The position numbers were made by a program, and so were the translations under genes. The notes beneath the pieces were generated by a model. That model was not told the origin of the DNA. It saw nothing but the letters and a program-made list of their open reading frames with translations, and did no database searches. Positions 2,381 to 63,193 of a stretch of DNA of 64,000 nt are shown here, piece after piece (position 1 is the first letter of the stretch; the number at the start of each line of letters is the position of its first letter). This DNA is from Thermoproteota archaeon (GTDB taxonomy: Archaea > Korarchaeota > JAOZGF01 > JAOZFZ01): the NCBI GenBank assembly GCA_027492035.1, contig JAOZFT010000004.1:113929-177928 (forward strand), in the 5' to 3' direction.

Positions 2381-3484
2381 ATGACAGATTTATGTTTCAT
2401 ATCTAACAGTTTTCCTCCGGATAAAGTTGGCAGCAAAGAATATTACGCGTTTCACGTATACAACCGCGTAAAACCAATTTGGGATGTAAAAGTAATAACT
2501 AAACATTGGTTATTAAAAATTCAAGATGAAAACGTTATCCAACTGGATTTCTGGAAAGTAAGAAAGATAGGAACTTACCTCTGGGCTCATAAAGTAGCTA
2601 AGGTTTTGAAGGAACAAAACCCAAAACATGTTCATGCCTTCGATTTTAGATCAATTTATTCAGCTTATTTGAGCGGCTTAAATTTTTCAGGGACATTACA
2701 CCATGAAGACATAAATTACATATCTAAACACTTTCTTCTCAAAAGAGTTTTTAGGAAATACTTTGAGAAAAGCGACAAGGTTTTCGTAACCAACTATAAA
2801 TCGTTAAATCTTCTGAAGAATTCCTTTAAGGATATAACCGATAAACTTGAACTTCTACCTTTAGGAGTTGATGCAAATAAGTTTTCTCCCTTTCAAAAGA
2901 CCAACACTATAAAGAAAAGGCTAAGTCTAGGCGAGAATGTTATTTTGCACGTCAGTGGTGAACTAACCCAAAACCAAGAATTAAAAAATTTAATTGAAGC
3001 ATACCGTAAATTAAAGAAAGAAATAAATGTCTCTTTGCTGATAATAGGGAAACCCTCTGAGAGTTTCAAAGATAAGTACAACCAACTTGTTAGAAACAGT
3101 CCCGACGTGACTTTCCTGGAATTTGTCCCTCACACAGAAATAAACAAGTATTACGCTTTAGCTGATGTTTTTGTTACCTTACCTTTAAAATATGACGGTG
3201 TGGGTTTGTCCATTCTGGAGGCAATGGCTTCAGCCACTCCTGTAATTTGTCCTCCTTCAGAAATCTATAAAGAAATGGGGGAGGAAAATATATTAACAGT
3301 CCCTAATGTAAAGGATGTTAAGGCACTAACAAAAATTCTAAAGGCTGTTCTAACAGATAAGAAATTCTCTAAAACATTAGGCTACAAGTCAAGGAAGTAT
3401 GTGATGGAGAATTATACGATCGAAACAATGATTTCTAAGTTGTCAAAGTATTTTGAAGAGAAAATAAAAAAAGTGAAATCTTGA
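2381..3484 (+). CDS. Glycosyltransferase, family 4 (GT-B fold)
   Basis: C-terminal EAMASATPVICPP motif typical of GT4/group 1 glycosyltransferases; ATG at 2381 preferred over the TTG at 2372. Confidence 0.7.
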   Translation: MTDLCFISNSFPPDKVGSKEYYAFHVYNRVKPIWDVKVITKHWLLKIQDENVIQLDFWKVRKIGTYLWAHKVAKVLKEQNPKHVHAFDFRSIYSAYLSGLNFSGTLHHEDINYISKHFLLKRVFRKYFEKSDKVFVTNYKSLNLLKNSFKDITDKLELLPLGVDANKFSPFQKTNTIKKRLSLGENVILHVSGELTQNQELKNLIEAYRKLKKEINVSLLIIGKPSESFKDKYNQLVRNSPDVTFLEFVPHTEINKYYALADVFVTLPLKYDGVGLSILEAMASATPVICPPSEIYKEMGEENILTVPNVKDVKALTKILKAVLTDKKFSKTLGYKSRKYVMENYTIETMISKLSKYFEEKIKKVKS

Positions 3485-5146: not shown

Positions 5147-5465
5147 TTCTATATACCCCTAAATTTAATTAGTTTGGGAAAGGATAGTTTATTAGGGGGA
5201 GAGAGAAACTTTAATAATATTCTTTTAAATTCTCCTTAGCCTTTCATGGGAGTAGAGGAAAAAAGGCAGGTTTACTTACGTTACTTTTTTAAGGTATACC
5301 TTTATATTTTTAAACATTGAAGGAATTTTATGGAAGGGAAACGTGAGCATGGGATTTCTTTATTGCTTCTCTCCTTTTTTTTAAAAAAAAAGGGAGAGTG
5401 AATGAAAAAGAGTAAAGGGTGAGAAGACTTTCTGCAGGTTAAAATTTTGAGGAGGTGATACTTTT

Positions 5466-5647
5466 ATGCCAAGAGGCAGCCACAGGTTTTAACCGGCTAG
5501 GGCAGCTTGGCAAAGGCAGGAAAGGTTAGAAAAGCTACTCCTAAGGTTGAAGGGAAAAAGAGACGCAGTCCCCCAGCTAGGGTAAGAAATAAAAGAAATT
5601 ACATTAAGAGGGTGTTATTGAAAAGAAAAATTGGTCAACCTAAGTAG
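5466..5647 (+). CDS. rps30e: Ribosomal protein S30e, interrupted: ATG exon 5466-5480, 26-nt intervening sequence 5481-5506, body 5507-5647
   Basis: Body frame encodes (GS)LAKAGKVRKATPKVEGKKRRSPPARVRNKRNYIKRVLLKRKIGQPK, matching the S30e HGSLxKAGKVR core. ATG CCA AGA GGC AGC (MPRGS) sits upstream in another frame; deleting 26 nt joins it in frame to give MPRGSLAKAGKVR... Alternative: simple TTG start at 5507. Confidence 0.5.
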
Positions 5648-25356: not shown

Positions 25357-25481
25357 TGGGCCCGGCGGGATTTGAACCCGCGACCCTCGGGTTGCTCCTC
25401 CAAAGGGGAGTACTTCTTTGGGATTAAGAGCCCGGTGCTTTAGGCAAATGAGAGGTTTCTACCTTGCTGAGCTACGGGCCC
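25357..25481 (-). tRNA. tRNA-Lys(CUU) with two predicted introns (about 19 nt in the D-stem, about 32 nt in the anticodon loop)
   Basis: 7-bp acceptor GGGCCCG/CGGGCCC, T-arm GCGGG-UUCAAAU-CCCGC. Removing AACCUCUCAUUUGCCUAAA restores D-arm GCUC-AGCAAGGUA-GAGC; anticodon stem CCGGG with loop CUCUUAA after removing a hairpin-forming intron. Isotype from hand folding. Confidence 0.6.
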
Positions 25482-32439: not shown

Positions 32440-32526
32440 GGGCCCGTGGCCTAACATGGATAAGGCGTCGGCCTGCGGTTTTTAGAAGAAAGCCGGAGGA
32501 TGCGGGTTCAAATCCCGCCGGGCCCG
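32440..32526 (+). tRNA. tRNA-Arg(GCG) with 12-nt anticodon-loop intron
   Basis: Acceptor GGGCCCG/CGGGCCC, D-arm GCCU-AACAUGGAUA-AGGC, anticodon stem UCGGC/GCCGG with loop CUGCGG + intron UUUUUAGAAGAA, T-arm GCGGG-UUCAAAU-CCCGC. Confidence 0.75.
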
Positions 32527-36573: not shown

Positions 36574-36664
36574 TGGGCCGGGTGGGATTCGAACCCACGA
36601 CCTCCGCCTTTTTCCAAGGAACAAAACGTGAAGGCGACGTCATAACCATCTAGACCACCGGCCC
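36574..36664 (-). tRNA. tRNA-Val(CAC) with 17-nt anticodon-loop intron
   Basis: Acceptor GGGCCGG/CCGGCCC, anticodon stem UCGCC/GGCGG with loop UUCACG + intron UUUUGUUCCUUGGAAAA, T-arm GUGGG-UUCGAAU-CCCAC. Confidence 0.7.
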
Positions 36665-53051: not shown

Positions 53052-55625
53052 GTAAAGATAAAGGAACCTAATCTCCCGGAAAAAGTTGCACAAGCAGCTG
53101 CGAAATTAGGCATAAGGGCCCTTTTCCCGCCTCAAATAAGAGCTATAAAGAAGGGAATTCTAAAGGGTAAAAATTTCGTCATAGCTACACCTACAGCTAG
53201 TGGAAAAACATTTATAGCATTAGCTGCGATAATAACCAAGTTAAATAAACACAGTGATAAAGCTATTTATTTAGCACCTCTACGGAGTATAGCATCGGAA
53301 AAATACAGTGAATTCAAAGAATTATTTGATGAATTAGGGTTAAGGACGGCTATTTCCACCGGTGACTTCGATCTTTCACCCGACTGGTTGAAAGGATATA
53401 ACATAATTATTTCCACGAATGAAAAAATTGACTCAATCATTAGACACAACCCAAAGTGGTTACAAGACGTAAAGGTAGTTGTAGTGGATGAAGTGCACCT
53501 TATTGACAGTTTGAAACGTGGCCCAATAATCGAACTCTTAATCGCTAAACTAAGGAAGAAAATAGAAAACCCACAAATTTTGTGCTTAAGTGCAACAATT
53601 AAAAATGTGAAAGAACTAGCGGAATGGATTAATGGAACATATATAAGCAGCAACTGGAGACCCGTAGAACTCAGGGAGGGAGTATTTTATGATTACAAAA
53701 TCTATTGGAGCAATGGAACAAAAAACGTAAGGAAAATTAAGGGGGAGAAATACACAGACCTCTGTCTAGATACATTAAAGGAGAAAGGGCAGGTACTTGT
53801 TTTTTTAAACACCAGAAAAAACGCAGAAAACACCGCAGAAAAAGTAAAGAACGCTATTTCCAACACTCTTACTGAAGAAGAGAAAAAGGAACTTAAAAAA
53901 ACAGCTAGAAGGATTATTTCAGAAGGAGAACAAACTAAACTTTCGAAAAAACTAGCTAACCTAATAATGAGTGGAGTTGCATATCATCACGCAGGTTTAA
54001 GGCATATTCATCGTGCAATAGTAGAGGAAGCATTCAGAAGTAATTTTCTAAAAGTTATTTGTGCAACCCCCACCTTAGCTGCAGGAGTTAACCTCCCAGC
54101 TAGGAGGGTAATAATAGGGCAAATTCATAGATTTTCAAAGGGAAAAGGAAGTCAACCTATTTCTGTAATGGAGTACAAACAAATGTGTCTGCCGTATGAC
54201 ACGCTGATCTTAACAGAAGAAGGGGAGATAGAGATAGGGGAGATAGTTGAAAAGAGAACTCCAAAAAAAGTTGTCAGTTTAGATCTTGAAACCGGTAAAG
54301 TAACCTTGAGCAAGATATTATCCTTTTTTGAAAGGAAAACTAATTTTTTGGTTAAACTCTTTTTAACTACTGGCTTAAACCTAGAACTGACACCTAACCA
54401 TCCATTGCTGGCAGTTAAAAACGGAAGGTACGGATGGTTACTTGCAAAAAGAATACGGAGAGGCGATGTTGTATTTACGTTAGATAAAGGGCTAATGAGA
54501 AAGATAAAAGTGAAAAAGGTAAAAAGAATAAACTTAGATAGCCCGATCACTGTCTTCAATTTGAAAACAGAAAAGGAAACCTTTTTTGCGGAAAGAATTG
54601 TATTGCATAATTGTGGACGGGCAGGTAGACCAAAGTATGATGAAATAGGGGAGGCGGTTCTTATAGCAAACACTGAAGAAAGAAAGGAAAAGTACTTAAA
54701 AAAGTACGTGAACTCGAAACCAGAAAAAATAAAATCGAAACTGGTTGATTCACCTGCCCTAAGAGCGCAGATTCTGTCACTAATAACTTCTAATTTGGCA
54801 TTCACTCCTGAAGATATGAGGGACATATTTAAGTTGACTTTTTATTACAGCCAAACTAAAGAGAAAAAGAAAATAGAGAGAAAGATTAAAGAAACATTAG
54901 ATTTCTTGTTACTTAACGGATTTATAAAGAAAACAGGGGACTTGCTTCATGCTACAAAGTTAGGAAAAAGGGTTTCTTTACTTTATTTAGATCCTCTTAC
55001 AGCAATAATTTTACTTAAAGGAATGGAAAAACTAGAAAAGAAGAAAGTCACTCCTCTTTCATTACTAACACTGATCTGCCTCACTCCAGACATGGAAACA
55101 CTAAGTTACCGTAAGGCATTCTATCACGAAATGAACAACTTACTTAAAGAAAGAGAGGAAGAACTACCCCTAGAAGTTTATTATACTTCAACCTATTACT
55201 TGCTCGATCAAGACTGGCTGCAAGCAATATGGACTGCAAATATGCTTGAGAAATGGATAAATGAAGAAAATGAAGACACTTTAAACTTTAAGTACGGAGT
55301 TGGCCCAGGAGACATAAGAAGAGTAAATGAAAGTGCTGATTGGCTCCTCTACTCCATGCAGGAATTAGCCAAAACGTTTAAACATGAGAATTACATTCCT
55401 TTAATTGAAGAACTAAGGCAAAGAATAAAATATGGAGTGAAGAAGGAACTAATTGAATTAACTACCATAAAGGGTATTGGAAGGGTAAGAGCCAGAGTCC
55501 TCTACAATAAGGGATACAAACGTTTAGAAGATTTGAGTAAGGCGTCTATAAATGAACTTGCTAAACTTCCAGCTATAGGCGAAGCCTTAGCAAAAAGTAT
55601 TAAAGAACAACTAAATGAGGAATAG
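53052..55625 (+). CDS. hel308: Hel308 (Hjm) Ski2-like helicase, containing a mini-intein; true start codon unresolved
   Basis: Walker A ATPTASGKT, DEVH box VVVVDEVHL, motif VI QM-CGRAGRP interrupted by intein, C-terminal HhH (IKGIGRVRARVL). Homologous N-terminus lies upstream of the ORF-track start (53388) with no ATG/GTG/TTG in frame back to the stop at 52905; 53052 is a frame-consistent placeholder. Confidence 0.8.
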   Translation, partial: VKIKEPNLPEKVAQAAAKLGIRALFPPQIRAIKKGILKGKNFVIATPTASGKTFIALAAIITKLNKHSDKAIYLAPLRSIASEKYSEFKELFDELGLRTAISTGDFDLSPDWLKGYNIIISTNEKIDSIIRHNPKWLQDVKVVVVDEVHLIDSLKRGPIIELLIAKLRKKIENPQILCLSATIKNVKELAEWINGTYISSNWRPVELREGVFYDYKIYWSNGTKNVRKIKGEKYTDLCLDTLKEKGQVLVFLNTRKNAENTAEKVKNAISNTLTEEEKKELKKTARRIISEGEQTKLSKKLANLIMSGVAYHHAGLRHIHRAIVEEAFRSNFLKVICATPTLAAGVNLPARRVIIGQIHRFSKGKGSQPISVMEYKQMCLPYDTLILTEEGEIEIGEIVEKRTPKKVVSLDLETGKVTLSKILSFFERKTNFLVKLFLTTGLNLELTPNHPLLAVKNGRYGWLLAKRIRRGDVVFTLDKGLMRKIKVKKVKRINLDSPITVFNLKTEKETFFAERIVLHNCGRAGRPKYDEIGEAVLIANTEERKEKYLKKYVNSKPEKIKSKLVDSPALRAQILSLITSNLAFTPEDMRDIFKLTFYYSQTKEKKKIERKIKETLDFLLLNGFIKKTGDLLHATKLGKRVSLLYLDPLTAIILLKGMEKLEKKKVTPLSLLTLICLTPDMETLSYRKAFYHEMNNLLKEREEELPLEVYYTSTYYLLDQDWLQAIWTANMLEKWINEENEDTLNFKYGVGPGDIRRVNESADWLLYSMQELAKTFKHENYIPLIEELRQRIKYGVKKELIELTTIKGIGRVRARVLYNKGYKRLEDLSKASINELAKLPAIGEALAKSIKEQLNEE
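54186..54611 (+). other. Mini-intein (142 aa, no homing-endonuclease domain) in Hel308 motif VI
   Basis: Begins with Cys (CLPYDTLILTEEG, block A), contains TPNHPLL (block B TxxH), ends FFAERIVLHN followed by Cys +1; flanking exteins YKQM / CGRAGRP reconstitute motif VI. Confidence 0.8.
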
Positions 55626-55655: not shown

Positions 55656-57059
55656 ATGTCTGTTTGCCCAATTGACACCGGAAGATATGGAAGAGAACCC
55701 TTAAAGAAAATTTTTACTGAAGAGGGACGTATAGAAAGGCTGCTAAAAGTTGAAGCCACCATAGCCAAAACACATGCTGAAATAGGAATCATACCTAAGG
55801 AAGCAGCACAAGAGATAGAGAAGAAGGCTTCCTTAAAATATGTAAAAATAGAGAGGATAAAGGAGATAGAAAAAGAAATACACCATGAAACAATGGCGAT
55901 GGTTCTTGCGTTAGCGGAACAATGTGGGAAATATGGGGGATACGTGCATTTAGGTTTAACAAGTAGTGATGCTTTAGATACTGCACTAGCAATCCAAATA
56001 AAGGATGCATTAAAAATAATTGAAGGCAAGCTAGAGAAATTGATTCTTAAACTAGTGGAGAAAGCTTTAAAGTATAAAAGTTTACCTATGATCGGAAGAA
56101 CCCATGGACAGCATGCAATACCTATAACTCTCGGTTTTAAATTTGCCCTGTTCGCTTCAGAGTTTCATAGACATTATGAAAGATTACAAGAAATAAAATC
56201 TCGAATTTTAGTTGGGAAAATCTCCGGTGCAACAGGTACGTTTGCAGCTTTGGGTAAAAAGGGCATCTTGATACAAAAGAGAACGTTAGAGAAATTGGGG
56301 CTGGGTGAACCCTTAATTACGACACAAATAATACAGAGAGATAGACATGCTGAACTAATTTTTCTGCTTGCATTAATAGGTACTTCTTTAGATAAGTTAG
56401 CAACAGAGATAAGGAACTTACAAAGGACAGAGATAAGTGAAGTCTCTGAGCCATTCAATAAACAGCAGATAGGTTCCAGCACAATGCCTCAGAAAAGAAA
56501 CCCTACGAAATCAGAGAGAATAACAAGTTTATCCCGACTTTTAAGATCAATGGTTTACCCAAGTCTAGAAAATATTGTCACGTGGCATGAAAGAGACCTA
56601 ACCAACTCAGCAAATGAAAGATTTACAGTGCCTGAGTCATTTATTTTGCTAGACGAGATGTTGACTGAGATGATTGAAATAATAGAGAAAATCAAGGTTA
56701 ACAAAGAAAAAATAAAGGAAAATCTTCACTTAACAAAAGGGTTAGTGATGTCGGAAAGAATAATGATGGCATTAACCAAAAAGGGGATGGGTAGACAGGA
56801 GGCCCACCAAACGTTGCGAAAAATAGCACTCAAATCGGTAAATGAAAACAAAGAATTCAGAATTACTCTTCTCCAAGACAAAGAAATAAAGAAGAAATTA
56901 ACCAGGAAAGAAATAGATGAACTTTTGAACCCTGAAACTTACACAGGTTTAGCAGAGAAAGTAATTGAAAGGACAATTCAGGCAATAAACAACTCGTTAA
57001 ACAAAAAAAGAGGGGAGGGGTTGGGAGAAGCTGATGCTATTCTTTTTAAACGCCTCTAA
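55656..57059 (+). CDS. purB: Adenylosuccinate lyase
   Basis: Fumarate-lyase family; GLTSSDALDTA and the SSTMPQKRNP signature; 467 aa. Confidence 0.9.
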   Translation: MSVCPIDTGRYGREPLKKIFTEEGRIERLLKVEATIAKTHAEIGIIPKEAAQEIEKKASLKYVKIERIKEIEKEIHHETMAMVLALAEQCGKYGGYVHLGLTSSDALDTALAIQIKDALKIIEGKLEKLILKLVEKALKYKSLPMIGRTHGQHAIPITLGFKFALFASEFHRHYERLQEIKSRILVGKISGATGTFAALGKKGILIQKRTLEKLGLGEPLITTQIIQRDRHAELIFLLALIGTSLDKLATEIRNLQRTEISEVSEPFNKQQIGSSTMPQKRNPTKSERITSLSRLLRSMVYPSLENIVTWHERDLTNSANERFTVPESFILLDEMLTEMIEIIEKIKVNKEKIKENLHLTKGLVMSERIMMALTKKGMGRQEAHQTLRKIALKSVNENKEFRITLLQDKEIKKKLTRKEIDELLNPETYTGLAEKVIERTIQAINNSLNKKRGEGLGEADAILFKRL

Positions 57060-57252
57060 CAGCCAATTTAACGTCTTCTTCGAGAACTGTTTTCCTACCT
57101 GCATGTTTAGCGAAGTCTGCAGCTCTCCGGCTGAGTTTTTCGGCGTAATTTTCAACCACGTCCCTTAACACTAACCTTGCATTCTCACTTACTCTGACCG
57201 CACCGGCTTTCCTCATAATTTTATCCAAAGGAGCTAATGGTAATTCAGCCAT
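57046..57252 (-). CDS. Archaeal histone (HMf-type histone fold)
   Basis: MAELPLAPLDKIMRKAGAVRVSENARLVLRDVVENYAEKLSRRAADFAKHAGRKTVLEEDVKLAVRGV matches the archaeal histone pattern. Confidence 0.85.
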   Translation of the reverse strand: MAELPLAPLDKIMRKAGAVRVSENARLVLRDVVENYAEKLSRRAADFAKHAGRKTVLEEDVKLAVRGV

Positions 57253-57521
57253 ACAAAACTCACCTAACGAAAAAACTTATACAAATTTATATTTAAATCT
57301 TCCCTTTTTCTTAATGCTCCATTGACCACAAACCACGAAACAAATCAAAAAAGTTACTGCCATTAAGTGACATAAGGGAAACCCTAGCAAAAATTTTGCG
57401 AAAAAGGAAGAAAAAATCAAATAATTTTAGGAAAATATTTCAAAAATTCGCGAATAAGAGAAAGGGAATAAAACAAAACAAAAAAATTTAAATTATGCTG
57501 ATTAACATAATATAAAGAGAA

Positions 57522-57640
57522 GGGGCCGTAGTCCAGCCAGAGGGAAGCCTAGATATGGGCTTTTCAGGCAAGGTAGGATGCCTGCCTGGGGAAATTAGCC
57601 GGAACGCAGGTGGTCCCGGGTTCAAATCCCGGCGGCCCCA
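57522..57640 (+). tRNA. tRNA-Pro(GGG) with two predicted introns (about 31 nt in the D-loop, about 13 nt in the anticodon loop); CCA encoded (to 57643)
   Basis: Acceptor GGGGCCG/CGGCCCC, D-stem GUCC/GGAU with insertion in the loop, anticodon stem CCUGC/GCAGG with loop CUGGGG + short intron, T-arm CCGGG-UUCAAAU-CCCGG, then A-CCA in the genome. Confidence 0.6.
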
Positions 57641-57721
57641 CCATTCCCAGCTTTTAAAATGTAGAGACGTAAAGAAGGGAATAAGTATTTTTTGAGTATA
57701 ACTCTTTGGAGAAAAGAAACT

Positions 57722-59173
57722 TTAAACCCAAACTTTTTCGGTTAAAACTCCCGAAAGGAAAAGGCTGAGGCCTTTCTTATATACCCCCTCGATCTGCTCA
57801 CTCCCCAAAATTTTGAAAGAAGAGACTAAGTTTTTCTCAACCATGGATTTTCTGTTTAACTTCTTCTTTATAATTTGGGACAATATCTCTTTAACTGAAG
57901 TTTCCTCTCTTTTTAAGTCAACTACTAAACGCTGTCCCTCCAAATAGGGACCTTTCAGAACCAATTTGTTGTTTTCATACTTTTTTAGGAAACTTATAAC
58001 ATTTTCTTTGCTCTTTTGAAGAACCGGTGGACCATAATGTTTTTTGATAGGTAACAACCTCTTTGTAACTGTTTCAAAGATTATGCAACATTTGGTTTGC
58101 TCATTAGTCCAGTAATACTTCCCAATTATTTCTACCCCTTCTTGGCTCATAAGCATAGCTAATTTCTTTGTCGTTTTTTTAAGCTGAGGCCAGATAATAT
58201 CTGGAGACTCTTCTTTTTCTAAACTGAAATCTATAAATAGCCAATAAGAACCTCGTCTCAATACTTTCCTGTTAATTTCATTTAAAGATAAAATTTGAGT
58301 TTTACCAGGGAAAAAGAAGGATAAACTAGGTTTTTTTAAGAAATTAATTGCAGAAATTATGAATTTACTCAAATTTTTATCTGAAACAGCTGCAGCTACA
58401 TTTCTTTCCTTATCAACAGGGTCTATAACGATCAAAGAGCCAGGAAAACTAGCAATTAATTTTTCAGTTAAAGGAAATCTTTCAATGTTTATTATTTCTC
58501 GTTGAGACCACTTTATAGATTCTTGAAGAAGTTTTAAGAAATTGCCATAGTGTAAAATGAGAAGCTCACAAAGATAACCAGAGAAACCTTCAGTTTTTGC
58601 GTCAGCCCCATAAACCGCTATCCCCTTCATAAACTGTTTCAGAATCCTTACTTCAGCAGCTTTTTCCTCTGTAATTTTCCCTTTCAAGTACCTATTGTGG
58701 AAAATTGTTCTATCAACAGAAGATTTTTTCTCTTCTAAACTTTTTATTTGAAAACAAGGCACTAGATCAATTTCGTAAGAGTTAATAATTAACCGGGCAT
58801 AAGGGTGCTCCGCATACTTTATAATTAAGTTTTGTGTTATTTCTTTAGCTATTTTCACTGTTTCATTCTCTAATTCTTCTTTACTGAATGATAAGGGGAA
58901 AGACAAGAAAATATCTATGTCTTTGTCACCTTTTAGCCAAGTATTTCTTGCAGTTGAACCCACTAACTCTGGTTTTGCAGGAATATTTCTTTCTTTACAA
59001 ATTTCTTTTATTTTGCAGAGTAACTTGCTCGTGAACATCTTAACATATTCTATTTCTTTTTTAGAAGGCTCTACCCTATTCAAAACATTTTTAAGGATGT
59101 CTTCAATGAGTTTTCTTTTATTACTGGAAAATGCCTCTTCAACTAGCCAATTTGACTGAAAATAAGGTTTCAT
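57722..59173 (-). CDS. cca: CCA-adding enzyme (archaeal class I tRNA nucleotidyltransferase)
   Basis: GSTARNTWLKGDKDIDIF nucleotidyltransferase motif; 483 aa. Confidence 0.85.
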   Translation of the reverse strand: MKPYFQSNWLVEEAFSSNKRKLIEDILKNVLNRVEPSKKEIEYVKMFTSKLLCKIKEICKERNIPAKPELVGSTARNTWLKGDKDIDIFLSFPLSFSKEELENETVKIAKEITQNLIIKYAEHPYARLIINSYEIDLVPCFQIKSLEEKKSSVDRTIFHNRYLKGKITEEKAAEVRILKQFMKGIAVYGADAKTEGFSGYLCELLILHYGNFLKLLQESIKWSQREIINIERFPLTEKLIASFPGSLIVIDPVDKERNVAAAVSDKNLSKFIISAINFLKKPSLSFFFPGKTQILSLNEINRKVLRRGSYWLFIDFSLEKEESPDIIWPQLKKTTKKLAMLMSQEGVEIIGKYYWTNEQTKCCIIFETVTKRLLPIKKHYGPPVLQKSKENVISFLKKYENNKLVLKGPYLEGQRLVVDLKREETSVKEILSQIIKKKLNRKSMVEKNLVSSFKILGSEQIEGVYKKGLSLFLSGVLTEKVWV

Positions 59174-59702
59174 AAACAGGACCCTTTGGCGTAAGTACAG
59201 ATTTCTTTAACTTAATTTCATTAACCTCTAACGGACCGAAATCCATGTTTTTGAGGGTTAAAAGCGCACTAACTAAGCTTTTCTCCTTAACGAAACGTTT
59301 AACTCTACCCAATGTTATATGGGAAGTAAACTCTTTTCCCAAGTCATAATTTATGTCTTTCCCAAACGAAGAAAGTAAGGCGTTGTAGACCTCCCTTATT
59401 TTTTCGTTATTTTCAGAAACTCCCACCCAGATTACTCTGGGTTTTTTCATGTTTGGAAATGCCCCTACACCACTTAACTTTACAATGAATGACTTTATAT
59501 CTGAGAGAGGCTTCATCCGTTCCTTTATTAACTTTATTTCTTCATTGTTTTTTTCTCCTAAAAAAATTAGGGTGATATGCAAATTCTGAGGCTCTACCAA
59601 TTTTATAGGAATGTTTAAAGAAGCTAATTTATTTTGAACAGTCATTATTTTATTTCTCACTTCTTTATCAGTAACATCAATTGAAATAAAACAACGAACC
59701 AA
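59139..59702 (-). CDS. thpR: RNA 2',3'-cyclic phosphodiesterase (2H family, LigT/ThpR)
   Basis: Two HxT motifs (HITLIFLG and HITLGRV); 187 aa; overlaps the cca start. Confidence 0.8.
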   Translation of the reverse strand: MVRCFISIDVTDKEVRNKIMTVQNKLASLNIPIKLVEPQNLHITLIFLGEKNNEEIKLIKERMKPLSDIKSFIVKLSGVGAFPNMKKPRVIWVGVSENNEKIREVYNALLSSFGKDINYDLGKEFTSHITLGRVKRFVKEKSLVSALLTLKNMDFGPLEVNEIKLKKSVLTPKGPVYETLFSVKLAS

Positions 59703-59824
59703 GCTTTCGCCACCTTCCTATAAAGTTTTATTAAATTTAAAAATAAAGAACAACGTGGAAAATTTAAGTTTGTAACAGATTAAAAAATTTCTTTAAAAGA
59801 GATTTATTGAAAAGATGAAAAGCC

Positions 59825-60226
59825 TTGCTTGTAAGGGCATACACGCGAGTTAATCCAACTGAAAGCCGAGAGAAAGTAGAGAAAGCTCTAAAAAATATAG
59901 TCTCGAAAGGAAAAATTCGTTGTTTCAGAAAGGGAGATGTAGATGTACTGGAAATAGAGGGATATGGTGAAGAAAGTCTTGAAACAATTTTTTACAAGAT
60001 AAGACAGAAAAAAATAGTTGATTCCTTCCGAAAGTTACTTCGCCGTAATAGAGGTGGAAATGAAACAGTTATCATGCTTAACAAACAGTCAGCCTATGTT
60101 GGTGTGATAACAGTTTGTGAAACAGAAAAGGAATCCCCTTTAGGTCCTGTGTTTTTGCAAATAAAATCTCAAAATCAAAAAATAGAAGAAATAATTGACT
60201 GGTTGGCACCTGAAACTAAAGCTTAA
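59825..60226 (+). CDS. Protein of unknown function (possibly UPF0201-like)
   Basis: 133-aa ORF from a TTG start (MLVRAYTRVNPTE...); no confident family. Confidence 0.35.
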   Translation: MLVRAYTRVNPTESREKVEKALKNIVSKGKIRCFRKGDVDVLEIEGYGEESLETIFYKIRQKKIVDSFRKLLRRNRGGNETVIMLNKQSAYVGVITVCETEKESPLGPVFLQIKSQNQKIEEIIDWLAPETKA

Positions 60227-61166
60227 CTTTTTTATTGGGAAGGAAAATTTCCGGTTCCCCCTTTTCCGGGTAAGGTATGTGAACCTTCAAAAAATCTTCA
60301 GCGATTATCACCTTTTTAGGCAATGAATCTAAACCTTTCATATATTCTTCTTGGGTCGCATATCGGTTACTTATGTGGGTAGCAACAACTAACTTAGTAC
60401 TTGTTTCTTCCGCTAACTTTACCACGTCTTGGATTGTAGAATGCGATTTCTCTTCTGCATGCTGTAAATCCTTCGCTGAGAAAGGGGCGTTGTAGATTAC
60501 TAAATCTGAACCCTGTGCAATTGAAATTAATTCCTCAAAAAACACGGTATCTGGTATATAAACTATTTTTCTTCCTTTCCTAGGAGGACCTATTATGTCA
60601 GAGGGCTTAATTATCCGCCCTCCCCAAGTAATTGTTTCACCTTTGATTAAAAGAGGCCTTAAATTGTTTGGAATACTGAGTTTTTGAGCTTTTTCCCCAT
60701 TGAACTTCCCTCTTCTATTTTTCTCTAAAAGAGCAACCCCTAGACAGTCAATAGAGTGCTTCACTCCAAAAAAGTTCAAGAAGTATTCATCATAAGAGTA
60801 AATGCTTCCGTCGGAAATAGGAAGAAAGGTTACTTCAAAGTTTGGATTAAGCTTGAAAAAATTTGCATGAAAAAGCAGGAAACTTCTTAATTTCTTAGGT
60901 CCAAACAGTTCTAGCTGAGTTTTGCGTCTAAACATTTTCATTGATTGAAGTAATCCTGGTAAGCCGAGTATGTGGTCCCCGTGTACATGAGAAACAATTA
61001 TTTTCATTGGTTTACAGAAACCTAATTTAGATTTAGCTAGAAGGAATTGTGCCCCTTCAGCCGGATCAAGCATAATTAGTTCCTTTTTTCGCTTAATCAC
61101 TACGCAGAAGGGGTTCCTGTTCCCTAAAGAGGCTGAAGCGCCTGTTCCTAGAAAGTACACATCCAT
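60216..61166 (-). CDS. rnz: Ribonuclease Z (tRNA 3' endonuclease)
   Basis: Metallo-beta-lactamase motif VSHVHGDHILGLPGLL; about 316 aa. Confidence 0.8.
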   Translation of the reverse strand: MDVYFLGTGASASLGNRNPFCVVIKRKKELIMLDPAEGAQFLLAKSKLGFCKPMKIIVSHVHGDHILGLPGLLQSMKMFRRKTQLELFGPKKLRSFLLFHANFFKLNPNFEVTFLPISDGSIYSYDEYFLNFFGVKHSIDCLGVALLEKNRRGKFNGEKAQKLSIPNNLRPLLIKGETITWGGRIIKPSDIIGPPRKGRKIVYIPDTVFFEELISIAQGSDLVIYNAPFSAKDLQHAEEKSHSTIQDVVKLAEETSTKLVVATHISNRYATQEEYMKGLDSLPKKVIIAEDFLKVHIPYPEKGEPEIFLPNKKVKL

Positions 61167-61214
61167 TTTCTATCATTCTCTCAGGTAAGTTAATTCTAAA
61201 AGAAAATAGTATTA

Positions 61215-62255
61215 TTAGGGTTTAAAGTAAAGGTCCACTTTGCGTATAAGGTGACGATGTAGGTAAACATTAAAAGAAGCAACAAGTTTAAACCCTATCT
61301 CTTCAGCATATTTGTGAATATTTATTCTGTTAGGGTAGGAGATACACATATATTTTCCTTTTTTCAAGGACTTAAAGGCAGATGGGATAAATTTTTTCAA
61401 CAGCTCAATAAGGGATCTACCATAAGAACTTGTTGAAATGGAATAAGGAGGATCTGTTACTATAGCATCAACTTTTTCATTTAATGAACAGGCATCACCT
61501 ACCTTCACCTCAAAATCTGTTTTACCTGTGAAAAGTAGGTTTATTTTGGCTAATTCCACAATTTGAGGGTTTAGGTCAATCCCTATTGCCTTGCAATTTA
61601 TGTTTAGGGCTTCAACAAGTATTCCACCTGGTCCACAGAAAGGGTCCAAGACAACGTCGCCTTTTTTGACATGTGCTAGGTTTACCATAGCCCGGGCTAA
61701 TGCAGCGTTCATCATTCCGCTTCTAACAATAGGTAGAGAAACCCCTCTCCCGAAAAGTAGTTTAGTTCTATCCACTTCCTCCAACTTTTTACCAAAAATA
61801 AATTTGTTTTGGATAAGAAGACCTAAATAAGTGATTTCAGGTCTTTCCAGGTTAACTTTAAAGGTGCTTTTCTTAGATTTAATTATAGCCCCTATTTCTT
61901 TGGTTAATAGTTGAGTTGAAACGTGTTTCGAGCTTCCTCTCACCCTAATGATTTCAACTTTAAAACCTAATTCGCCCTTGTTCGAGTTAATTTCTAATTT
62001 TTTGGTTGCTTCAAGAATTTTCTTCTCCTCCGAAGTACAAGCGAAGTAGAGCTCACTGATTATTTTTGTGAATGCGGCCCGGTTTGAAATAGAGGCAACT
62101 GATTGTTCATTTGACTCAAAAACTAGGCACTGAGGCAGAGAAAGGAGTTCACGATATGGTTTATTTTCTCCTTTAAGTATTGATTCAACTTCTAAGGCTG
62201 CTAATTCAGGATTTTCACCTGAAAGAAAACAAAAGAAATTCTTCACTGACCTCAC
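61215..62255 (-). CDS. tRNA (guanine(10)-N2)-methyltransferase, Trm11/Trm-G10 type (THUMP + methyltransferase)
   Basis: SAM-binding VLDPFCGPGGILVEA and catalytic DPPY (IVTDPPYSIS); N-terminal THUMP-like region. Confidence 0.75.
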   Translation of the reverse strand: MRSVKNFFCFLSGENPELAALEVESILKGENKPYRELLSLPQCLVFESNEQSVASISNRAAFTKIISELYFACTSEEKKILEATKKLEINSNKGELGFKVEIIRVRGSSKHVSTQLLTKEIGAIIKSKKSTFKVNLERPEITYLGLLIQNKFIFGKKLEEVDRTKLLFGRGVSLPIVRSGMMNAALARAMVNLAHVKKGDVVLDPFCGPGGILVEALNINCKAIGIDLNPQIVELAKINLLFTGKTDFEVKVGDACSLNEKVDAIVTDPPYSISTSSYGRSLIELLKKFIPSAFKSLKKGKYMCISYPNRINIHKYAEEIGFKLVASFNVYLHRHLIRKVDLYFKP

Positions 62256-63193
62256 TCTTTTTTCATAAAGTTATTAATTTGCTGAACAAGTTGACAGGCC
62301 TTACAAATGTCATGTGACGAAGGTTCGCCACATATTTCGCAAGTTTTAAGCTCTATTTTTCCTATGAACCTTTTTTTCATGAGTGAAAGAGTATTTAACA
62401 TGTAATTGTAAAAGTTAATTTTTGCGCCAGGCATAAAATTTTCAACTGAATTTATAGTTTCTCTCATGAGATTCCTCATTCCTTCCCAAGAATAGGGGCA
62501 TTCACCAAAATACACGGGGATTTTCTTTAACAGGACATAAGCTGCTATTTCTTTTTCAGGAATGTTAGCGAGAGGTTTTATCCTTTTCACAAAGGATTTA
62601 CTTATCTTTCTTTCAGGGTAGGATTTCAATATTGACTTTACATCACCTCTCACCACGTTCATAAAAAGGGTTTGTATATTATCATCTAAGTTGTGCCCCG
62701 TTGCTATTTTAGTTGCATTCAATTCACGTGCAGTGTTATTTAAAATTCTTCGCCTAAACACACCACAGAAGGTACAGGGACTTCTAGGCTCTTTGAGAGT
62801 ATCCGGCCAAGAATTAACTACTTCATCCAAACTAAAACCGAAAAAATCTTTAAATGAAACTATGTGATAATTTACGCCGAGAAATTCGCAATTTCGAACA
62901 GCTAACTCTATGCTTTTCTCTCTGTACCCCCTTATTCCTTCATCCACAATCAACGCAAACAGTTCAAATTTTTCTTTTTGTCGCAGATTATTGAGAATAT
63001 AAAGAGTCAACGTGCTGTCTTTCCCACCCGATAAAGCAACAGCTACCCTGTCATTTTTACTTATTAACCTTTGCTGAACAAAGGTTTTTCTTATTTTCTC
63101 CTGGAAGTAATTAAAGAAACATTCTTTACAAAGAACTTGACCCAAGTACCTTATACTTATGACCCCTCTCCCCCCGCATTTACTACATTCCAA
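62252..63193 (-). CDS. ttuA: tRNA 2-thiolation protein, TtuA/NcsA family (PP-loop ATPase)
   Basis: N-terminal CSKCGG...CKEC, PP-loop SGGKDS, C-terminal CEICGEPS...CKAC. Confidence 0.8.
   Translation of the reverse strand: MECSKCGGRGVISIRYLGQVLCKECFFNYFQEKIRKTFVQQRLISKNDRVAVALSGGKDSTLTLYILNNLRQKEKFELFALIVDEGIRGYREKSIELAVRNCEFLGVNYHIVSFKDFFGFSLDEVVNSWPDTLKEPRSPCTFCGVFRRRILNNTARELNATKIATGHNLDDNIQTLFMNVVRGDVKSILKSYPERKISKSFVKRIKPLANIPEKEIAAYVLLKKIPVYFGECPYSWEGMRNLMRETINSVENFMPGAKINFYNYMLNTLSLMKKRFIGKIELKTCEICGEPSSHDICKACQLVQQINNFMKKE

Follow-up and report, generated by a model that had tools for sequence, protein, structure and literature searches.

We analysed a 64,000-nucleotide stretch of korarchaeal DNA (hereafter the window; assembly GCA_027492035.1, contig JAOZFT010000004.1, positions 113,929 to 177,928 of the forward strand), in which a gene for tRNA-Pro with anticodon GGG lies on the plus strand at 57522-57643, interrupted once in its D-loop and once in its anticodon loop. 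The genome, INS_M21_B37, is a metagenome-assembled genome (MAG) placed in the class Korarchaeia but in none of its orders, with 36.6% GC (~36% in the window) and 1.8 Mb (PMC10667645, Table S1), and comes from sediment of the Jan Mayen Bruse vent field, at ~49-74 C (PMC10667645). The gene reads GGGGCCG UA GUCC AGCCAG (32 nt) GUA GGAU G CCUGC CUGGGG (13 nt) C GCAGG UGGUC CCGGG UUCAAAU CCCGG CGGCCCC A CCA, and the following elements can be distinguished, the flanking signals being predicted from the sequence:

57487..57495, plus strand: putative promoter, a TATA-like box (TTTAAATTA) with an A-run before it, 27-35 nt 5' of the tRNA start
57522..57540, plus strand: exon 1, with the acceptor strand GGGGCCG, U8 and A9, the D-stem strand GUCC and the D-loop part AGCCAG (to G18)
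57541..57572, plus strand: predicted intron 1, in the D-loop, 32 nt, AGGGAAGCCUAGAUAUGGGCUUUUCAGGCAAG (from RNAfold, L011 and the spliced L004 gene, see below)
57573..57591, plus strand: exon 2, with the D-loop part GUA, the D-stem strand GGAU, G26, the anticodon stem strand CCUGC and the loop part CUGGGG
57592..57604, plus strand: predicted intron 2, at the canonical 37/38 site, 13 nt, AAAUUAGCCGGAA (from RNAfold and orthologs)
57605..57640, plus strand: exon 3, with C38, GCAGG, the variable loop UGGUC, the T-arm CCGGG-UUCAAAU-CCCGG, CGGCCCC and the discriminator A73
57641..57643, plus strand: CCA directly 3' of A73
57652..57655, plus strand: putative archaeal terminator, the T-run TTTT, 9 nt past the CCA

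The anticodon GGG occupies 57588-57590 and is followed by G37. TTTAWA boxes resembling TTTAAATTA are also found upstream of the other tRNA genes of the window and of the orthologs.

Excision of both inserts leaves a 74-nt tRNA plus CCA, for which ARAGORN draws a flawless tRNA-Pro(ggg) cloverleaf. In the spliced product, the stems measure 7, 4, 5 and 5 bp, the anticodon loop 7 nt and the variable loop 5 nt, and the T-loop reads UUCAAAU, which is the layout of a class I tRNA-Pro; the product also carries G1-C72, A73, G35, G36 and G37. We take the anticodon GGG with G37, A73 and G1-C72 to be the determinants recognized by ProRS and Trm5. The exons therefore reconstitute a canonical class I tRNA-Pro. 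A natural counterpart of this product exists: a pattern scan of metagenomes led to an intron-less tRNA-Pro(GGG) gene on another contig (L011, 7018-7091, plus strand), which reaches 67 bits in Rfam against a threshold of 29. The spliced window product shares 72 of its 74 nucleotides with this gene and departs from it only in the D-loop, at positions 17 and 17a; the match covers the 9-nt length of the D-loop, the CUGGGGC anticodon loop and C38, all of which had been foreseen from the geometry of the bulges. The identity as tRNA-Pro with anticodon GGG, proposed in an earlier note made from the sequence, is borne out by this twin, a resemblance to a tRNA that chance could not produce. We rejected L011 as a close relative devoid of introns, its TyrRS being closest to Aenigmatarchaeota. 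This tRNA-Pro(GGG) is strikingly conserved across phyla, which also means that relatedness cannot be judged well from tRNA identity here.

Orthologs provide a second line of evidence. The CCA-adding enzyme encoded next to the gene is found in three NCBI MAG assemblies, with an identical tRNA in all three; beyond these assemblies, its nearest homologs share only 43-48% identity with it. In one of these more distant genomes (L004, GCA_027491945.1), a syntenic tRNA-Pro(GGG) gene lies between cca and the adenylosuccinate lyase gene and is interrupted where the window gene is, by 15 nt (AGGTTAACCGGCAAG) and 11 nt. In another one (L006, INS_M21_B31), the tRNA-Pro(GGG) gene differs in its acceptor stem, and the inserts, again at the same sites, measure ~30 and 11 nt. 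When the four genes are aligned, the cloverleaf that spans the split exons has 98.8% of its cells paired, versus 46-58% in slid controls, and four pairs of the acceptor and T stems display compensatory double changes. From this comparison, the two insert positions are conserved in three divergent lineages and the insert sequences have diverged. Since the exons appear to be under tRNA-type selection and the inserts are fixed in place but free in sequence and length, they behave as maintained introns and not as the scars of a pseudogene. The inserts at the same site in both orthologs support the position that had been assigned to the D-loop intron, the size of which is 32 nt instead of the ~31 nt first estimated; the insert of about 13 nt announced for the anticodon loop measures exactly 13 nt (57592-57604), and the C38 that follows it matches L011, L004 and L006. 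Scans of metagenomes and of a genome collection that does not include the window's own genome, made with the shared anticodon arm as pattern, returned only L009 (the contig of L006), L011 and chance matches to coding DNA in L007, L008 and L010, and no tRNA-Pro gene adjoins the loci of the CCA-adding enzyme homologs P0005, P0006 and P0008.

The junctions themselves can be read against the archaeal splicing signal. In the bulge-helix-bulge (BHB) motif, a 4-bp helix lies between two 3-nt bulges, each of which is cut behind its second nucleotide. From this rule, we predict cuts after gene positions 19 and 51 in the D-loop and after positions 70 and 83 in the anticodon loop. AG is present at both D-loop junctions, and cuts placed 1 or 2 nt more 5' would give an identical product. 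In the RNAfold structure, intron 1 forms a 10-bp hairpin, and GCC(15-17) of exon 1 pairs with an intron GGC, with an A-A mismatch in addition; the 5' cut would lie in a 3-nt bulge (AG/A, the slash marking the cut), and the 3' site (AG/G) in an enlarged bulge beside the D-stem. The size of this intron is set by the 9-nt D-loop of L011 and of the spliced L004 product. The D-loop intron of L004 keeps the termini AGG...GGCAAG around a minimal GG-UUAA-CC hairpin. Intron 2 is predicted to be of the hBH, or bulge-helix-loop (BHL), type: in the RNAfold structure, the anticodon stem extends into a CUGG(32-35)/CCGG pairing, a 3-nt bulge (AA/C) contains the 3' cut, and the 5' site is in a 9-nt loop. In strict register, this motif gives H = 4/4 and h = 7. 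U33 pairs with G in the window gene and with A in L004 and L006, so that the base pair persists.

The gene is not isolated in this respect. Introns interrupt four of the four tRNA genes of the window, six introns in total, a small sample in which the three other tRNAs were named by ARAGORN after intron excision:

25357-25481, minus strand: tRNA-Lys(CUU), with introns of 19 nt at D-stem position 22/23 and 32 nt at 37/38, without CCA
32440-32526, plus strand: tRNA-Arg(GCG), with a 12-nt intron at 37/38
36574-36664, minus strand: tRNA-Val(CAC), with a 17-nt intron at 37/38

In the tRNA-Lys(CUU) gene, which scores 43.7 bits in Rfam, the first intron (25440-25458) is of the HBh' type and the second (25393-25424) has a strict BHB; the intron mode of ARAGORN (-i) wrongly reports it as Lys(ttt) with a single 41-nt intron. 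Unspliced, tRNA-Arg(GCG) and tRNA-Val(CAC) are misnamed by ARAGORN as Cys/gca, and as Arg/cct or Phe/aaa, respectively. As a result, the automatic tRNA inventories of these MAGs are likely wrong. Compared with one another, the six tRNA introns of the window show no similarity, and the one strong match to emerge is between an intron of the eS30 gene and the D-loop intron of L004 (see below). Since the three other tRNAs of the window also require intron removal, splicing must be routine in this genome.

The 3' end of the gene raised a separate question, because the earlier note had set the CCA present in the DNA against the presence of a CCA-adding enzyme gene close by. Two genes on the opposite strand matter here:

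57722..59173, minus strand: archaeal class I CCA-adding enzyme gene (NCBIfam cca_archaeal, 449 bits versus a cut-off of 281; also Pfam)
60216..61166, minus strand: RNase Z gene, candidate 3'-end processing enzyme (NCBIfam NF000801, 253.8 bits versus a cut-off of 252)

The first is convergent with the tRNA-Pro gene, from which a gap of 78 nt separates it, and the CCA does stand directly past A73; both observations hold, but they do not contradict each other. Indeed, a CCA-adding enzyme gene near a CCA-bearing tRNA gene is no paradox when most tRNAs of the genome need the enzyme: the count of encoded CCA that had been called for, carried out within the window, gives one gene in four, the three other tRNAs being without it. 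Moreover, the three homologous tRNA-Pro genes have other triplets after A73, namely TAG in L004, TTT in L006 and TGG in L011, and no CCA was seen on any of the four L011 tRNAs. The explanation that the CCA is a coincidental trailer, RNase Z cutting after the discriminator and the CCA-adding enzyme rebuilding the end, so that the encoded triplet is functionless, fits these absences. It also fits the frequency of CCA (window, 0.011; tRNA flanks, 0.008), so that the chance probability of seeing it in at least one of 4 genes is 0.043, and in at least one of 46 genes 0.40. No further tRNA genes were found in ~19 kb of added flank (~9 kb on the right and ~10 kb on the left). On the other side of the balance, three assemblies agree exactly on the CCA-bearing sequence, and it is common for CCA-encoding tRNA genes to coexist with CCA-less ones in an archaeal genome (PMC7479834), the former being a minority of 25-26% in two methanogens. 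In addition, the RNase Z of two methanogens cut precisely after the encoded CCA in vitro (PMC7479834), so that a CCA would most likely be used if present. The case of Methanococcus maripaludis and Methanolobus psychrophilus resembles ours in that a minority of genes carry CCA and that RNase Z and a CCA-adding enzyme are both encoded (PMC7479834); it differs in that 25-26% of their genes are concerned and cleavage was demonstrated, whereas here one gene in four carries a CCA that is not conserved in orthologs and is known from sequence. Hence, we see the functionless trailer and a used CCA as evenly balanced: selection on the CCA is not supported, as it is unconserved in the orthologs and its rate is compatible with chance at the genome scale, and from the sequences compared the triplet at 57641-57643 cannot be told from chance.

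Taken as a whole, the locus is very probably a functional two-intron tRNA-Pro(GGG) gene of a deep-branching korarchaeon, whose transcript would be spliced by proteins, an endonuclease and a ligase. Several points weigh against this conclusion. The case is built from sequence, and from that of a MAG. The motif of the D-loop intron is of a relaxed form: its helix H amounts to 3 Watson-Crick pairs and the A-A mismatch, its 3' bulge is enlarged, one extra A (gene position 45), which the L004 intron lacks, is bulged out, and in strict register the motif gives only 3/0/0. A blind scan for strict BHB motifs does not discriminate, since it "finds" motifs even in the intron-less gene, and ~1,456 such motifs are expected by chance in the window; for these reasons, the junction geometry is consistent with BHB splicing without proving it, and motif scans alone constitute no evidence. 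A tblastn search with the EndA of L017 retrieved no EndA homolog in the window or in ~250 kb of loci, and no RtcB gene of this genome was seen either. For the D-loop junction of L006, ARAGORN accepts almost any D-loop length. Finally, coming from another, Aenigmatarchaeota-like phylum, the twin of L011 validates the spliced product but is silent on intron gain or loss in Korarchaeia.

Among the other explanations for the gene itself, the one that survives best, although we judge it very improbable, is that of a decaying tRNA pseudogene, the D-loop and anticodon-loop insertions of which are never removed. It would account for the imperfect BHB of the D-loop and for the silence of the usual tools over 57522-57643, where neither ARAGORN by default nor Rfam at the gathering threshold makes a call. 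Unspliced, the gene is not recovered by RF00005 even in a permissive local scan, as is expected of a D-loop insert. The pseudogene is contradicted by exons that are intact and covary in three lineages whose CCA-adding enzymes are just 43-48% identical, and by inserts that vary in both sequence and length at constant positions, as maintained introns do. Moreover, promoter-like and terminator-like signals flank the gene, and it is implausible that all four tRNA genes of the window, each of them interrupted, should be pseudogenes. The tRNA-Arg(CCU) with a single 26-nt intron and a long extra arm that ARAGORN proposes in intron mode for exactly 57522-57643 is scarcely credible. Its D-stem is mismatched, its anticodon stem contains mismatches and G-U pairs, its intron would sit at 33/34, on the 5' side of the anticodon, and its variable arm, long and mismatched, is foreign to tRNA-Arg. 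The program permits one intron only, which forces such a model, and mis-assigns the other intron-bearing tRNAs of the window as well, whereas the product of the two-intron reading matches natural tRNA-Pro genes. The intron-aware search suggested in the earlier note thus recovered the exact gene boundaries but gave the wrong identity and intron number. We also discarded a reading as transfer-messenger RNA (tmRNA), for which the sub-threshold Rfam matches cover just the tRNA-like acceptor and T-arm. This artefact of the tmRNA model recurs at 57400-57643 in the window, at 3343-3396 in L004 and at 4517-4636 in L006, each time with a low E-value and 20-30 bits versus a gathering threshold of 47.

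For the functional two-intron gene, the maturation pathway may be pictured as follows. A precursor of ~120 nt would be transcribed with its two introns. EndA would cut the 13-nt intron at 37/38 through the bulge-helix-loop motif and the 32-nt D-loop intron through the relaxed BHB, the 5' cut of the latter falling in the 3-nt bulge between the short exon-1 helix and the 10-bp intron hairpin, and its 3' cut in the enlarged bulge by the D-stem. This would call for an endonuclease of broad specificity, whether (alpha-beta)2, epsilon2 or the korarchaeal alpha2 type with the specific loop. An RtcB-type ligase would join the exons, and RNase P and RNase Z, the gene of which is 2.6 kb off, would trim the ends. 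The CCA would either be exposed directly by RNase Z, as with the methanogen enzymes, or be removed and re-added by the neighbouring CCA-adding enzyme. Such cleavages have precedents, as D-loop introns and relaxed BHB or BHL motifs are cleaved in vitro by broad-specificity EndA (PMC3241643, PMC3239211).

Multi-intron tRNAs, D-loop introns and relaxed BHB motifs are already documented, including in Korarchaeum. In 217 archaeal genomes, 673 non-canonical tRNA introns were counted, with up to three introns per gene, and Thermoproteales reach 0.84 introns per gene (PMC8450103). The positions named in the text of a review include 20/21, 22/23 and 25/26, and the same text describes a tRNA-Pro(UGG) of Pyrobaculum islandicum that is interrupted three times, at 25/26, 37/38 and 56/57 (PMC4090602). 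The window gene resembles these Thermoproteales genes in combining a canonical 37/38 intron with a non-canonical one, in its predicted relaxed HBh' and hBH motifs, and in being missed or mis-called by standard finders; unlike them, it belongs to deep-branching Korarchaeia, and its D-loop site, 17a-19, is not among the positions that the review text names (PMC4090602). In A. pernix, a D-loop intron is cleaved in vitro by EndA alone, provided that the enzyme has its Crenarchaea-specific loop (PMC3241643). That intron lies in the D-loop like ours, but it is the sole intron of its gene and has a canonical BHB, whereas the window gene has a relaxed motif there and a second intron elsewhere, both introns being known from sequence. 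Closer in phylogeny, Korarchaeum cryptofilum has tRNA introns that include non-canonical and multiple ones, and its EndA, of the alpha2 type, carries the specific loop (PMC3239211, PMC4033280). It is of the same class, Korarchaeia, and offers a precedent for a korarchaeal EndA that handles non-canonical sites; one such tRNA is described there, while here two of the four sampled genes have two introns each. The same isoacceptor is also interrupted twice in ARMAN-2, whose pre-tRNA-Pro(GGG) has introns at 53/54 and 59/60 (PMC3239211) and whose genome encodes a broad-specificity endonuclease. Contrary to ours, however, these introns are in the T-loop and have strict BHBs, and the host is a DPANN archaeon with an epsilon2 enzyme. 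The novelty of our case lies in the lineage, in the fact that three deep lineages of Korarchaeia share both sites, and possibly in the precise position of the D-loop intron, 17a-19.

Another source of information on the D-loop intron is a protein-coding gene of the same window. A GC-island scan pointed to 5466-5647, where the following features are found:

5466-5647, plus strand: gene for the ribosomal protein eS30, starting with ATG, with a strong Shine-Dalgarno sequence (GAGGAGGTGA) at 5449-5458
5484-5500, plus strand: predicted eS30 intron, 17 nt (AGGTTTTAACCGGCTAG), after codon 6, with a strict 3-4-3 BHB

The reading frame opens with MPRGSH and then hits a stop; with the 17 nt removed, it encodes a 54-aa protein, in which a Pfam Ribosomal_S30 match spans the junction (40 bits versus a cut-off of 27). 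The closest homolog, 80% identical over its full length, is uninterrupted and lies in the fully syntenic locus of the sister MAG, the shared order being GlmS, glycosyltransferase, Elp3, eS30, Nop5 and fibrillarin. Alignment of the DNA with this ortholog reveals an exact 17-nt insertion past the His6 codon, with an unambiguous junction, and of the 54 codons of the exons, 22 differ from it synonymously and 11 non-synonymously. The local minimum free energy fold is a textbook hBHBh' with its cuts at exactly the aligned junction, a strict-BHB criterion that just 2.4e-4 of random 17-nt segments of the window satisfy. The insert is identical in an independent assembly, and the gene is uncalled in both assemblies. 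We also ran a screen for further introns in coding sequences of the window, based on BHB motifs that merge open reading frames, and rejected it as unspecific, with 600 matches; no claim is derived from it.

This eS30 intron resembles a tRNA intron. Aligned with the D-loop intron of the tRNA-Pro gene of L004, the sister lineage (3412-3426, minus strand), it is identical at 14 of 15 positions, apart from a TT indel in the hairpin loop. None of 20,000 full shuffles scores as high, and 8 of 20,000 do when only the hairpin part that is not constrained by the exons is shuffled. The motif shared by the two introns was not found elsewhere, either in the rest of the window or in 23 loci. The insertion targets are alike too, as the intron follows ...CCAGCCAG in tRNA-Pro and ...GCAGCCAC in eS30 (CAGCCA). 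Since the D-loop site of tRNA-Pro is common to three lineages and the eS30 insertion is missing from the sister lineage, the simplest reading would be that a tRNA intron transposed into an mRNA; the direction of this transfer, from tRNA to eS30, is inferred from two to three genomes. We are thus inclined to think, with some reserve, that the tRNA-Pro D-loop intron belongs to a mobile BHB family, which in this korarchaeal lineage would have spread from a tRNA into a protein-coding gene. In Thermoproteales, introns are known to have transposed from one tRNA to another (Fujishima 2010, cited in PMC4090602). As for archaeal mRNAs spliced by the endonuclease, the reviews list only cbf5 and HVO_1309 (PMC10485636, PMC7714728), and our literature search retrieved no report of an eS30 intron. 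Like the introns of cbf5 in Crenarchaeota and of the HVO_1309 5' untranslated region in Haloferax, the eS30 intron would be a BHB intron in an mRNA, presumably processed by the tRNA splicing endonuclease (PMC2738675, PMC10485636, PMC7714728). It differs from them by its gene, by its host, a member of Korarchaeia, by its strict 3-4-3 BHB and, as far as the cited papers go, by its apparent homology to a tRNA intron.

The tRNA-Pro gene adjoins other genes of tRNA metabolism. A tRNA-maturation cluster (57722-63193, minus strand, extending into L012) comprises the CCA-adding enzyme, ThpR/LigT, a PF01877 protein, RNase Z, a Trm14-like protein, an NcsA/TtuA-like protein and SAMP/ThiS. In this cluster, the Trm14-like protein is a methyltransferase, the NcsA/TtuA-like protein a tRNA thiolase and the PF01877 protein an RNA-binding protein; the gene of the latter is given as plus strand and is also grouped among the minus-strand neighbours. 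The gene for ThpR/LigT, a 2',3'-cyclic phosphodiesterase, overlaps cca by 35 nt, and the thpR-cca pair recurs in L005, L017/L018 and L019, an EndA gene being located ~0.6 kb upstream of the pair in L017. An RNA 3'-phosphate cyclase gene lies ~4 kb beyond the cluster. On the other side of the tRNA-Pro gene, an archaeal histone gene (57046-57252, minus strand) stands between it and the adenylosuccinate lyase gene, a place where L004 has none. Further away, a Hel308/Ski2-type helicase gene (53388-55625, plus strand) carries an intein (Pfam Intein_splicing, L001/L012), while its L004 ortholog has no intein match, and a gene of the actin family (crenactin-like) is found just past the right end of the window (L012, 2225-3499).

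In conclusion, the intron-bearing tRNAs of the window are all missed or misnamed by standard tools, so that MAGs of deep-branching Korarchaeia will seem to lack tRNAs if the search does not allow for introns. Several deep korarchaeal lineages can now be added to those with multi-intron tRNAs and with non-canonical intron positions that are conserved, which bears on how intron diversity and the korarchaeal endonuclease have co-evolved. With six introns in the four genes sampled, the tRNA intron load of this lineage may equal the record held by Thermoproteales. As a lead, the eS30 intron is more valuable than the tRNA-Pro gene, the ribosomal-protein copy being a much rarer phenomenon. If it is spliced, the eS30 transcript would join those of cbf5 and HVO_1309 as the third known archaeal mRNA that needs the tRNA splicing endonuclease, and would be the first one with a traceable tRNA-intron origin. 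It would then provide a tangible example, open to dating, of how an intron of tRNA type settles in an mRNA. Because the sister lineage lacks the eS30 intron and tRNA-Pro holds a donor-like copy, two short transcripts would allow a direct test of the way in which archaeal introns transpose and of the substrates that EndA accepts.

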